Assembly (NCBI RefSeq): GCF_057098645.1
Contig: NZ_CM169472.1
DNA length: 64,000 nt
Reading direction: 5' to 3' (one strand)
Positions within the stretch are counted from its first letter, which is position 1. Each line of letters begins with the position of its first letter. A program made the position numbers. Shown one piece after another: positions 1-15,000 of this stretch.

Positions 1-3000
1 TAATCCGCCTCCTGATTGTGTTCGGATGCCGGACGGTAGAACTGAGGTTATCGGAGATCAGCGAGTGGGATTTTACCGAAATGCTCTGGACCGTGCCGAA
101 AGAACACAGCAAAACGAAGGTGGCAATATTCCGGCCCATACCGGAAGCAATACTGCCGTTCGTCACGCAGCTGGTGGAGCAGAACAGGCACACGGGTTTA
201 TTGCTGGGGGAAGTGAAACAGGAAACAAGCGTGTCGCAGTACGGCAGATTAGCGCATAGGAGGCTAAATCACCCTCACTGGTCACTACATGACATCCGGC
301 GCACCTTTACAACGATGCTGAACGATTTAGGCGTGGATCCTCACGTCGTGGAGCAGCTTACAGGCCACCAGATGCCAGGAATGCAGCGAGTTTATAATCA
401 TTCCCGTTATCTGGATGCTAAACGCAATGCGCTGGATATGTGGACGGAGCGGTTAGGGATACTGGCGGGAACACATGAAAACGTAACCACGCTACCAGTA
501 GCCAGAAGAAAATAATTTTTTTCGTGTTTTTTCAGCATGCGCATACTGGATATGCGAACAGATACAACGTGCAACAATGAGCAACAATGTGGAACAACCA
601 CGAACAAGAGGCGAAAAAGCGTACGGATTTATAAGTAGCTGATTTTTAATGCGTTACTGGTTTTTTATACACTAGCGAATCACTCTTTAAAGAGCGAGAA
701 AAAAGGCATGAAACAATATTTTATGCCTTTGTATTAACATGAATTTAAAAGATTTTATTCTTACTGTTTCATTTTCTGTAAATCATACATCCTCAGTATT
801 TGCCATTCATCACTCTAGCGGGAACAATACGACACAATAAGACACCTGATGACTCTTTAAGAAACGAAAGGGGGCAATAGTGTTAAGCACTGATCGGTTT
901 ATACGTGAAAAAGAATGCGAAAAACTAACCGGCCTTAGCCGTACGTGTCGCTACCGCCTGGAAAAGGCCGGACAATTCCCATCACGTCGTAAACTTGGCG
1001 GTCGTTCCGTTGGCTGGTCTTTATCCGAGGTTCTGGCCTGGAAGGATAGCTGCAAGGCAGTTCATTAATCACGCTGGCGGCACGCAGCCGCCACACATCA
1101 ATCATCTGAACACAGAGCTATAACCATGAAGATTGAATATACGCCAGAACGTAGGCGGGGATTCGTTCGCCCTGGTGAAACTGAAAAACAACAAAATTGG
1201 GGTTTTTCAGGCATAACAAAAAGCGCCCAGTTACCTGAGCGCCTTTGTGAACGATTAACCTGCTGCACAAAAAATAAATATGAGCATTGGAATTATATCA
1301 ACTGTGTGAAGAAGCGCCACAATTGCCGGATTACAGGCAAAAAAAATGCGACCTATGATGGTCGCAAAAATATGATATACATGTTGATTACACTATGCAT
1401 CGACAACGATGCCACATTTTTGGCTGGTTGGCAAATCTGTCATCAGGGCGGACAACAACGCCACGATCTCATCTTTCTTGGGCAATTTTTAAGAAAATCC
1501 TCAAGGGCAAATCTTTTTGGCCTTGCTTCCTGTTCATGGTCAGGCATTTCATCCATTTCTCTTAATTTTTTTTCTACCTGTCTTTCAAGTATGGATAATG
1601 CGATTTCCCGTAATTCTTCGTTGTTCATTGTCTACTCCTGTAAAGAAATGCGCCGTAGTTCCTCACACCACGGCGCTGATAGTGATTATTCTGATTCTTT
1701 GGCCTTCCGGCGCTGTTCATATTTTAATTTGCGTCCACAGGCATCTAAGACCCATGCGGAAAAATTAGCACTAGGATTAGTTAATTTTTCTTGTTCAACG
1801 CTGGCATCAATCCCATCTATAAGCTCATGTGGGAATCGAATATTTTTCTTTGCTGATTTGTTGTTTTTGTTACCGCTAGACATTGATGCACCTCACTTAA
1901 ATGGACTTTATGGGCGCACACAATACAGTAAAAAAAATGAGATGTTAAGTATTGACATGTGCGCACACATGATTTTAATCTGTGCGCACAGTTTGAGTTT
2001 TGTTACTCAAATTAAGCAACGCCCCGCAGTGCTCGCAACACATGCAGGGCGTCTAACCACCAACGATAGCAACAGTATCGAGGCAGCTATGAGAAATCAT
2101 ACCACACACCCGCAAGGGCGGGACTCGCACAACCTGAATAAATACATCTGGCGTTTTATCGCCCTGAGCACGGCACAACCGCGCGTGATTACCATTGAGG
2201 CCACCAGCGAACAGGAAGCACGCCAGCAATCTCCGGCTGGCTGCGTGATGGTATTCGCTGCCCGTATTCGTCAGGAGGTGTGCCATGTGCAATAACATCC
2301 GTCCGGACGCAGCCGCCGAAGCCATCATAACGCTAATGCACGCGCTGATTGATATTTCTGTTATCGCAGACATGGCGCATAAGCACGCCACCAGTGAAAC
2401 AGAATATGCCGGGGCTTTCGTTCCTCATTCGCTGGCGGTTATGCAACTTAGTGCGGATATGGCGCTGAATGAGGCCAAAGCCATCCTGATTGCTGATTGT
2501 GAAAATGGGGGGGGGTTATGCGTGATGATCGTTTTAATTCCCTGAAACAGGAATTTTCCGGCGTTCCTGATGATGCGGCTGATGCGCTTTCGTCAATATC
2601 TGAAATTATGCGGGTGGCTTTTTTCTTTCTTTGCACTGATGAGCACAGGGATACAGGGCTAAATATTCTTGATATTGCCGCTAACTATGCTGATTTCGTG
2701 ACAGAAGTTGTTTTAAGAAAAACGACGGACGGGGATTAATATGCGTGATATTTACCTTGAAACAATAGACCGCGCATTTCTTGCACTTTCTCACAGTGAA
2801 AACATGCTGGAAATATTGCGCATATGGCTTGACACGCTTGGAGATAATGAACGCGACAAACAAAAATCAAGAATTGCCACGGCATTAATAACGCTACTTG
2901 AGCCTGTAATAATGGAACTGCAAAAAATAGATCTATTGCACGACAGATATAAAGAACAGCACACCGGAGAATAAAAATAATGAAACTTAAATATTCTGGC

Positions 3001-12000: not shown

Positions 12001-15000
12001 AACGCCTGGCGACTGCATTGATTACGACCGGATCAGAGATGACATCATGCAGGACGCGGAGAAATTTAATATCAGGCTGGTGGGCTTTGATACGTGGAAC
12101 GCCACGCATCTCAGAACGCAATTACAGGGGGCAGGTTTTGAGGTGGAGCCGTTCCCGCAAACCTACCTCAGATTCAGTCCGGCGGCGAAATCGTTCGAAG
12201 TTTTTGTTAACCGCAGGGTGATTGTGCATCGTGGCGATCCGGTGTTGTCCTGGTCGATGAGTAACGTCGTGATGCAGAGTGACGCGAACGCCAATATCAA
12301 GCCGAACAAGAAAAAATCACCGAACAAGATAGACCCGAGCGTGGCGGCGCTGATGGCGTTTGGTACATTCCAGGCAGAGCATGAGGATTTTGCTTTTGAT
12401 ATAAGCGACAGCCACCGCCAGAAACTGGAAGAATTTAGCGGGGTGTAATGAGGTCAGCAGCATGACAGAAGCCGAAATAACGGGATTAATCCGCCGCGTT
12501 GCCGGAATCAGCCAGCAGGCTGACGAACAGGCCACGCAGCCGGACAGCGTGACAGCCGAAAACTATGCGCGTGTTGTTGCTGAGGTGATGCGCCGTGATG
12601 GTATAGAACTTAATGGCGTGGATATGCGCAACATACGAACCAGAGTTCTTTAGTTGCTGGCCTACCGTCGCCGCGTGGAGATGTATCGGGAGAAGGAGAA
12701 AATAACGTACCACTGGAAGAAGCCGGAGCGGTTGCGGCGGTAACTGGTTGATATTCCCGACGGCCCAAAAATGGGTTGGCTACACCCCTCACAACTACGA
12801 CATTTTCGCAGTTTAATTAATGGTCAGCTTAATCGCTAACCCGCTGATATTTTAGGAAACCTCAATTTGAGGAAGTCGGCGCGGTAACTTGCTGAACTTT
12901 AAGCAAAGCGCAAAATTGCGCTTGCTGAATAATCATTATGATTACGCAGATGATTAAGGAATGACCGAAGGCGGAAATTCGCCTGTGGTTAATGGGGGAG
13001 TTGCAGATCTGCAACTCGACCATGAAACTACGGAAACTACCCGTAGTTTGGGTAGTAAGAGTAACACCCAGATTTTGGGGCTTACTCGTGATACCCAAAT
13101 TTGGGGTATCGGTGGCAACCATAACGACTTTCGTTACGGTTGATGCTTTTACCCCATTGGGGGAAAGGTATTACGATAATCATAACACCTACCGAACAGG
13201 TAAAGCCCACCAGCCTGATTAACGTTTAACCGGAAAAAAATTCCGGTAGGTGGGGATCCCCATATAGACATTAACGCCCCTCATGAATTGGTGTGCTTCC
13301 CCCTGGAAAGATGATCCGCCTGTATATTTCTTGTGTCTATTTGTTCCACGTTGTTTCATACAGTGCACCGAACGGTGTAGTCACTGGTGTAGTCATTTTG
13401 CGATTTTTGGCACTTTTTGTGGTGTTAATTATTTAATTAAATCAATGTGTTATGCGAAATAAGTTATATATAACAGCAATAAATAATGCGAGAATAAACG
13501 GCACGATGATCTCGGCGGCAAAACGGATACCGCAGAGAATAATGACCAGCATTCCCAACATAATGACGATTTTTAGGCCATTGAGCGTGATGATCGGCTT
13601 TGCCATGCTTGTCCCCGTTTTTTCTTCCTTTGCTAATAATAATGTCTTTTTCGCTCCGTCATCATAACGAAAATCAAACCGCTCAGGTAAAGAAGTGAAA
13701 ATATTTTGAGTTAATTCTTAAGCTATGATACAAATCAGGCGTGTTCAACTACCGAGGACAATTATCATCCGCGATGACGAGAAGCAACACTGCGGATAAT
13801 TGTAATATTATGGACAATTTGTTCAGGACGTTATTTTCTACATTTACCCATCTTCGTACCTCATCCACTATCTTGCTCGTAGGTGAGCAGCACTGGCGCA
13901 ACGCGCTTTAGTCCTTTCTTCTGCCAAAGCTTGCGCTAAGCGCGGGGCTTGACCACTTTACTTTGGTTTCGCTGAATTAAGCGAAAATTAAAATAATTCT
14001 CTTGCAGGAGAAGGACAATGTATATTTATTGGATTTTATTAGGTCTGGCTATTGCTACAGAAATTACCGGTACGCTGTCCATGAAATGGGCGAGCGTCAG
14101 TGAGGGAAATGGCGGTTTTATTTTAATGCTGGTGATGATTTCTCTGTCGTATATATTTCTCTCTTTCGCCGTTAAAAAAATCGCCTTAGGCGTAGCTTAT
14201 GCGCTGTGGGAAGGTATCGGTATTTTATTTATTACCTTGTTTAGCGTTTTGTTATTCGACGAAAGTTTATCGCTGATGAAAATTGCCGGGTTAACCACCC
14301 TGGTCGCCGGGATTGTGTTGATAAAATCAGGTACCCGTAAAGCGCGTAAACCTGAACTGGAGGTGAACCATGGCACAGTTTGAATGGGTTCACGCCGCCT
14401 GGCTGGCATTGGCAATCGTGCTGGAAATCGTTGCTAACGTCTTTTTGAAATTTTCTGACGGCTTTCGTCGCAAAATATTTGGCTTGCTCTCCCTGGCGGC
14501 GGTGCTGGCTGCCTTTAGTGCGCTTTCTCAGGCCGTTAAAGGGATCGACTTGTCTGTCGCTTATGCATTGTGGGGCGGGTTTGGTATTGCCGCCACGTTA
14601 GCCGCAGGTTGGATCTTGTTTGGTCAACGGTTAAATCGTAAAGGCTGGATTGGCCTGGTCTTGCTGTTGGCTGGAATGATCATGGTGAAACTTGCCTGAT
14701 GAAGACGCTGCCCGCGCTGTCGGGCAGCGTTTGAACATTATTTTTGCGACAGTTGATCCAGCTTGTCGCGAAAACCGGTAACAGAAATGGCCCGGTTATC
14801 GGCGCGCCAGCGATCTTTCGCGGCAGGAGCCGAACTTTGCACCCCAATTAATTGCCAGCCGTCATCGGTATGCAACATCAGAGGCGAACCGCTGTCACCC
14901 GGCAAGGTATCGCACTGATGTGACATCACCGACGTTTGCGCCCAGCCAGTCACTTCACAGTTTTGATGACTGTACAACGTATCGAGATGATCTTCAGGGT

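Follow-up and report, generated by a model that had tools for sequence, protein, structure and literature searches.

Phage-inducible chromosomal islands of the capsid-forming kind (cf-PICIs) were defined by Alqurainy et al. with EcCIEDL933 as the prototype (10.1101/2022.09.08.507074). EcCIEDL933 is a 15.4-kb island in which int, alpA, and rep genes, as found in classical PICIs, are combined with genes for capsid, protease, portal, head–tail connectors, HNH endonuclease, and the small and large terminase subunits (TerS and TerL), and which is devoid of tail genes. For induction it depends on a helper phage, either HK106 or HK446, and also on alpA, whose mutation abolishes the process. Transfer is lost when any one of eight packaging genes is mutated and is severely reduced by mutation of gene 1792, while replication is unaffected by all of these mutations; the island packages itself specifically, and the helper need supply only phage tail genes (10.1101/2022.09.08.507074). 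The EcCIEDL933 capsid has been solved and has T=4 symmetry; the adaptor and connector set tail specificity, HK106 tails being accepted and HK022 tails not (He et al., 10.1101/2025.02.11.637232). A survey with SatelliteFinder reported 969 cfPICIs; they were present in 13% of Enterobacteriaceae genomes, and their median size was 14 kb and 19 proteins. Here, we describe a 64,000-nt stretch of contig NZ_CM169472.1 from assembly GCF_057098645.1 (hereafter, the window). Judging from its sequence, positions 1–13,478 are very probably a cf-PICI of the EcCIEDL933 lineage, inserted in the Escherichia coli gene tqsA. This reading is supported but not new, the family being known, well studied, common, and described in 2022–2023.

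A first-pass annotation had taken the same stretch for a satellite that builds and fills its own capsids and needs only tails from a helper, which is the published definition of a cf-PICI and is borne out by the close relationship to the experimentally tested EcCIEDL933. Gene calls were made by profile search against PHROG, NCBIfam, and Pfam. The integrase, AlpA, AAA_25 replication protein (Rep), iteron origin, single-stranded-DNA-binding protein (SSB), and PerC-like regulator that had been proposed were each found at the expected place, as was the complete HK97-type head and packaging set; the capsid, portal, and terminase calls, on which the earlier interpretation would have stood or fallen, were upheld. 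The integrase is present as a C-terminal fragment only, the window edge cutting off its 5′ part of ~715 nt. The features that carry the identification are listed below.

3–515, plus strand: tyrosine integrase, last 170 codons only (phrog_1 integrase, E 1e-32; 170/170 residues identical to the EcCIEDL933 integrase)
880–1068, plus strand: alpA, predicted excisionase-like regulator switching the island on (phrog_2790, E 2.5e-17; 62/62 identical to EcCIEDL933 AlpA)
3276–4676, plus strand: replication initiator/helicase of RepA type (AAA_25), 466 amino acids (PF13481, E 5.3e-43; phrog_2850, E 2e-261)
4674–4868, unstranded: putative replication origin in the ~200-bp gap after rep, with six copies of the iteron AAAGTGGGGAG around an AT-rich center
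5126–5536, plus strand: SSB (TIGR00621, 57.3 bits, above its cut-off of 53.95; phrog_44)
5547–5819, plus strand: PerC-family regulator (phrog_994, E 2.5e-46; PF06069 recorded for the identical protein)
6108–7265, plus strand: HK97-fold major capsid protein, EcCIEDL933 gene 1786 (TIGR01554, E 5e-88; 382/385 identical to EDL933)
7305–7877, plus strand: prohead protease, gene 1787 (TIGR01543, E 2e-53; 189/190 identical)
7879–9090, plus strand: portal, gene 1788 (TIGR01537, E 2e-72; 401/403 identical)
9087–9425, plus strand: head closure protein, called "connector" in the papers, gene 1789 (TIGR01563; phrog_25; 108/112 identical)
9422–9718, plus strand: head–tail adaptor, gene 1790 (phrog_40, E 5e-36; 97/98 identical)
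9718–10158, plus strand: HNH endonuclease, terminase partner, gene 1791 (phrog_144, E 1e-44; 144/146 identical)
10142–10324, plus strand: 60-amino-acid protein, homolog of gene 1792 (phrog_3173; 60/60 identical)
10325–10446, unstranded: GC-rich gap upstream of terS, candidate cos site (one substitution and one 1-nt indel relative to EcCIEDL933)
10447–10803, plus strand: TerS, gene 1793 (phrog_83, E 3e-39; 118/118 identical)
10787–12448, plus strand: TerL, gene 1794 (phrog_9, E 2e-179; 546/553 identical)

With the att repeats in view at one end only, the locus otherwise holds every feature by which SatelliteFinder and He et al. recognize a cf-PICI in sequence. An integrase lies at one end with an AlpA-type regulator adjacent to it. 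A replication module of its own consists of the AAA_25 Rep and adjoining iterons, with the Rep C terminus co-varying with the iterons. The capsid, prohead protease, and portal score above the curated cut-offs of TIGR01554, TIGR01543, and TIGR01537. An adaptor and a connector/head closure protein, which mark cf-PICIs off from classical PICIs, were identified by phrog_40, phrog_25, and TIGR01563, and HNH, TerS, and TerL (phrog_144, phrog_83, and phrog_9) are all intact. The full length is ~14.4 kb (13,478 nt in the window plus ~890 nt estimated from the relative L016), within the ~10–18 kb of cf-PICIs and next to the family median of 14 kb. Of the direct repeats expected at the att sites, the attR core is seen at 13470–13478 and attL lies beyond the left edge; the site types of the integrase end and the right end differ, as discussed below. 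The tail, holin, and lysis genes that SatelliteFinder forbids are absent from 1–13,478. Indeed, the PHROG search of both strands of that stretch gave no match in any open reading frame (ORF) to tail, baseplate, fiber, holin, endolysin, or cI/Cro families, as the first-pass annotation had maintained.

The packaging proteins are preserved in detail. Scores to the NCBIfam equivalog models for HK97 capsid, protease, portal, and head closure are far above the curated cut-offs, and SSB passes its cut-off as well. All nine packaging proteins lack internal stops, as do AlpA and the visible integrase, and the nine are 96%–100% identical to those of EcCIEDL933. The capsid protein matches PDB entry 9GYI, whose sequence equals the EDL933 protein exactly, with an E value of 6e-255 and 3 differences in 385 residues. 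It keeps the SxGxxAD cleavage motif at residue 93 together with D257, K290, D295, E319, and R345, residues that were mutated in the structural paper.

In the EDL933 chromosome (NZ_CP008957.1), we mapped EcCIEDL933 to 1,680,329–1,695,6xx, with roxA and phoQ on its two sides. By blastn, positions 5821–12755 of the window are 97.6% identical to the prototype over 6,936 nt, and the int/alpA region is 98.5% identical. At the protein level, the int-alpA end is 100% identical over its visible part, SSB is identical at 133 of 136 positions, and the PerC-like regulator at 79 of 90. The nine-gene capsid and packaging module has the same order in both islands, the candidate cos gap is alike, and the two belong to one size class (14.4 kb here, 15.4 kb for the prototype). 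The islands differ in their replication modules: a 466-amino-acid RepA/AAA_25 protein with GTGGGGAG iterons is found here, whereas the prototype has a 710-amino-acid DUF927 primase-helicase. Different genes also stand between alpA and rep, a 74-amino-acid gene between perC and the capsid gene is missing here, the last gene is truncated here, and the right end lies in tqsA as opposed to the roxA-phoQ gap. The difference in replication modules is ordinary module shuffling within the cf-PICI family.

Other classes of element fit the locus poorly. We rejected a classical PICI, since portal, adaptor, and connector, all forbidden in the PICI model, are present; a temperate HK97-like prophage was rejected as well, as neither tail module, lysis cassette, nor cI/Cro-type immunity was found in 1–13,478. 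That the island could be a decayed HK97-like prophage, its tail, lysis, and immunity genes deleted, is hardly credible. Its head and packaging genes do belong to HK97-type families, as such a remnant's would, but the nine packaging genes are intact, and the tail-less layout recurs at at least 95% identity in 355 genomes and at no fewer than three att sites. Moreover, the left half is a PICI module, int-alpA-rep-ori, and not a lambdoid immunity and replication region, and the gene order of HK97 is the reverse of capsid-protease-portal. The organization of the module has been reported to differ from that of the helper phage (10.1101/2022.09.08.507074). In the phage collection, coverage of the packaging module does not exceed 30% in any record, and the prototype is experimentally a satellite. 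The module itself is common: of 5,426 complete E. coli genomes, 403 (~7%) carry it at a coverage of at least 80% (the 355 just mentioned at at least 95% identity), and the whole 14 kb is covered to at least 80% in 149 genomes. A domesticated capsid module resembling a gene-transfer agent (GTA) and packaging host DNA is scarcely conceivable. The capsid and portal do match the RcGTA structures 6TB9 and 6TBA, but the matches are remote (E 1e-46, compared with 6e-255 for the cf-PICI capsid); the element has its own integrase, att site, replicon, and cos-type HNH/TerS/TerL set, and the prototype specifically packages itself.

A handful of points weigh against the identification as a cf-PICI. The element in the window is known from sequence alone, and helper-induced excision and replication, the formation of its own small capsids, and tail-dependent infectivity are attributed to it by near-identity to EcCIEDL933. 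The 5′ part of the integrase, attL, and the flank lie beyond the window, so that completeness and the lack of adjacent tail genes are read from relatives; those relatives at the same site whose left end can be seen have the integrase as their last gene, next to tqsA and pntB, without tail or lysis genes, contrary to the concern that such genes might lie left of the island. The cos site is placed at 10325–10446 by analogy with the HK97-type HNH-cos-terS layout. The other 50 kb of the window hold no helper prophage. Finally, the 3′ half of a roxA-type integrase and alpA are joined to a tqsA-type right end (arm repeats, att core, and flank), so that attL and attR might be mismatched.

If the island behaves as the prototype does, a helper prophage would trigger alpA, leading to excision and expression; this was shown for EcCIEDL933 and is expected here from near-identity. 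The RepA-type AAA_25 protein would bind its cognate iterons and replicate the island. The capsid protein, protease, and portal of the island would then form small T=4 capsids of HK97 fold, as they do in the prototype, and HNH, TerS, and TerL, together with the 60-amino-acid gene 1792 protein, would cut at cos upstream of terS so that unit-length island DNA is packaged. The adaptor and head closure protein would dock a phage-made siphovirus tail, with an HK106-like tail being expected for an adaptor and closure of this type. Lysis would be supplied by the helper.

The right boundary of the island is defined by the following features.

13374–13396, unstranded: tandem arm-type repeats GGTGTAGTCACTGGTGTAGTCA, putative arm-binding sites of a tqsA-type integrase (same repeat near both ends of tqsA-site relatives)
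13470–13478, unstranded: attR core ATAACAGCA, right end of the element (9-bp repeat present at each of the two tqsA junctions of relatives L001 and L004)

The first-pass annotation had put the right end at 13471, inside this core. In the same-site relatives MBT-5 and E110019, tqsA is split by the element and the 9-bp core ATAACAGCA is found at both junctions. Here, a 5′ fragment of tqsA on the minus strand extends from the attR junction to 13606, and the right flank continues with ydgV-mdtJ-mdtI-ydgD. At the other end, the integrase start and the att core would lie ~715 nt and ~890 nt upstream of the window edge, respectively. Positions 14–64 kb belong to the core E. coli chromosome: thousands of genomes match them at 99%–100% identity and with 100% coverage. 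As this whole stretch is core chromosome and contains no prophage, we rejected the idea of a helper prophage inside the window. Strain C325 is 100% identical over positions 39–64 kb of the window; at the place corresponding to the first ~25 kb it carries a lambdoid prophage, so that the two are not collinear.

When the island was compared with relatives at different sites in 500-nt bins, its two halves agreed with different sets. Positions 1–4,930 are 100% identical to L007, an element at the roxA-phoQ site, and likewise to L011 and L015, which share this site, as far as 2,500 or beyond. Positions 2,500–14,000 are 100% identical to the tqsA-site elements L014, L016, and L018, except for the bin containing the origin. 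The att core expected with roxA is GGACATATTT, compared with ATAACAGCA at tqsA. An identical combination of ends was found in none of the public contigs and complete genomes reached, and look-ups of exact proteins (Rep, PerC, and the 83-amino-acid protein of the replication module) returned many relatives, none with the combination of ends seen in the window. A synthetic query for the tqsA-integrase junction gave partial precedents (98.8%) and no exact match; a synthetic query composed of the tqsA 3′ end, the 5′ part of a tqsA-type integrase, and window positions 1–1266, was covered to at least 80% in 859 complete genomes.

Of three readings of these mixed ends, we favor, with some confidence, a crossover inside the integrase gene, upstream of the window, that left a tqsA-specific N-terminal domain in place. 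The competing reading, which we consider unlikely while keeping it in view, is that of a stranded cf-PICI: a crossover between inverted resident cf-PICIs at roxA-phoQ and tqsA would have inverted the intervening chromosome, leaving a copy with roxA-type attL and integrase and tqsA-type attR that could not undergo site-specific excision. Chimeric assembly over the shared 9.5 kb would produce an identical pattern. The two sites presumably lie ~0.5 Mb apart, going by the K-12 map. Several observations speak for stranding. There are 100% matches to L007 on the left and to L014 and L016 on the right (bar the origin bin); each of the 11 comparison loci that overlap the window in their integrase region has the integrase type that goes with its insertion site; gene order suggests that the element is oriented oppositely at the two sites, in which case one crossover would give exactly the junction in the window; and the same hybrid occurs in no complete genome. 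However, the crossover within the integrase would explain these data too, and it would leave a working tqsA-specific enzyme. Most of the residue differences between the two integrase types (27 of 37) fall within residues 1–142. A tqsA-site PICI in STEC17-183 already carries nucleotides 1000–1230 of an EDL933-type integrase and its alpA, and mosaicism is rampant in the family, as the swaps of origin and Rep C terminus show. Put more generally, it is improbable that a large chromosomal inversion or other ectopic exchange between cf-PICIs residing together at roxA-phoQ and tqsA gave rise to this copy, whose attL and attR would then be mismatched and which could still make capsids but could not excise. 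Were the inversion reading true, the copy would exemplify cf-PICIs as portable stretches of homology through which the terminus half of the E. coli chromosome is rearranged. With the crossover inside the integrase that we favor, the island would have kept an integrase specific for the site it occupies.

The replication module shows a mosaic on a finer scale. The gap at 4674–4868 is, by its repeats, a typical iteron origin. Rep differs from that of MBT-5 at 12 residues and from that of L011 at 13, and 11 of these lie in residues 412–464 (window positions 4509–4676). The iteron core is GTGGGGAG in the window and in L007, compared with GTGAGG(A/G)G in MBT-5 and L011, and it changes together with Rep residues 412–464. 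Because of this co-variation, we suggest that the C terminus of Rep reads the iterons and sets origin specificity.

The remaining genes of the island are small or variable.

1126–1266, plus strand: remnant of a variable gene downstream of alpA (similarity to EDL933 stops at 1266; annotated as a pseudogene in E110019)
1686–1883, minus strand: YlcI/YnfO-like small protein (DUF3950), the sole minus-strand gene (phrog_949, E 1.9e-27; annotated in E110019; PF13132 in L006 and L011)
1942–2295, plus strand: Icd-like protein, start uncertain and possibly at 2098 (NF033153 phage_ICD_like, 67.6 bits, above the cut-off of 25; phrog_6196)
2285–2545, 2518–2739, and 2741–2974, plus strand: three small conserved genes (phrog_5146/2512, phrog_24341, and phrog_2196; no PADLOC match)
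2980–3279, plus strand: DUF4222 protein (phrog_285; PF13973 in relatives)
4878–5129, plus strand: conserved 83-amino-acid protein of the replication module (phrog_1231, E 2e-51)
5826–5850, plus strand: terminator-like hairpin, separating the packaging operon from the regulatory/replication half (two copies in EDL933)
12462–12653, plus strand: accessory gene with a premature stop, 63 compared with 93 codons (phrog_1561, profile positions 1–63 of 93; alignment to EDL933)

The co-directional block described in the first-pass annotation thus extends to all genes but the YlcI/YnfO-like one. PF05930 is recorded on alpA of L007, in a stretch 100% nucleotide-identical to the window. We rejected the 389-codon ORF at 1126–2295 as a single gene: it is a run-through whose residues 1–275 have no PHROG match and which contains a gene on the opposite strand. 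Its only family match (Icd-like) is confined to the last ~90 codons, the frame spanning the pseudogene remnant, the antisense of the DUF3950 gene, and the Icd-like gene, and the annotation of E110019 has a pseudogene remnant and separate genes in its place. Some gene callers report this frame as one protein (in L007 and L015). An Rfam scan of 1–16,000 at E ≤ 0.1 returned nothing, including any known RNA such as C4 near the Icd-like gene, and PADLOC matched none of ten small and accessory proteins to a defense system. The 63-amino-acid form of the gene after terL is also called in L014.

Between perC and the capsid gene (window 5820–6107; L003 8483–8860), EcCIEDL933 and MBT-5 carry a 74-amino-acid gene that does not occur in the window; it is missing as well from E110019 and from the remaining 13 comparison loci spanning this region. 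In EDL933, a copy of the hairpin CAGCCGGAGnAATCCGGCTTTTT stands on either side of this gene. The window has a single copy, and the loss or gain of the gene looks like a repeat-mediated indel.

Among further relatives, L013 is a related cf-PICI that has the same PerC protein and is inserted at a third site, flanked by the ilvG leader region and the proVWX genes; its integrase is only 74%–85% identical in nucleotide sequence. The terS/terL genes match at 78% identity in LR881103.1, a 16,548-bp record named "Escherichia phage vB_KppS-Ant" and described as an induced prophage; judging from its size, this may itself be a cf-PICI.

In terms of significance, cf-PICIs move between species on borrowed tails, which is already published for an element with near-identical packaging genes. 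The present locus adds no new biology; its points for the specialist are the co-variation of the Rep C terminus with the iterons and the integration ends of mixed type. It also illustrates that a cf-PICI can be recognized from raw sequence alone, with the right end placed within a few bases.

Among known systems other than the prototype, the classical E. coli PICIs of the EcCICFT073 type share the int-alpA-rep-ori-SSB-PerC half. An identical 83-amino-acid protein and a similar AAA_25 Rep are found in the classical PICIs L020 and L021, at the yejM-side site; the occurrence of this protein there is in keeping with the exchange of left-half modules that has been published for PICIs and cf-PICIs. 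The tqsA att site is also used by both, being occupied by a classical PICI in STEC17-183 (L022). Unlike the island described here, classical PICIs use helper capsids by means of a lambda-E-like capsid-remodeling set and a Nu1-like TerS, and they lack portal, adaptor, head closure, HNH, and TerL. Satellite P4 is similar in being integrated, in having an integrase and alpA, in depending on a helper, and in forming small-capsid particles, but it takes the proteins for its small capsid from the helper P2 and relies on the helper terminase and cos, while the island in the window encodes its own. With phages HK97, HK106, and HK022, the island shares the capsid fold, a motif for protease-dependent maturation, the portal, adaptor, and head closure families, and an HNH-dependent cos terminase. 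It differs from HK97 and its relatives in having no tail, lysis, or immunity genes, in low sequence identity, in gene order, and, going by the capsid of the prototype, in a T=4 shell without covalent cross-link as opposed to T=7 (10.1101/2025.02.11.637232).

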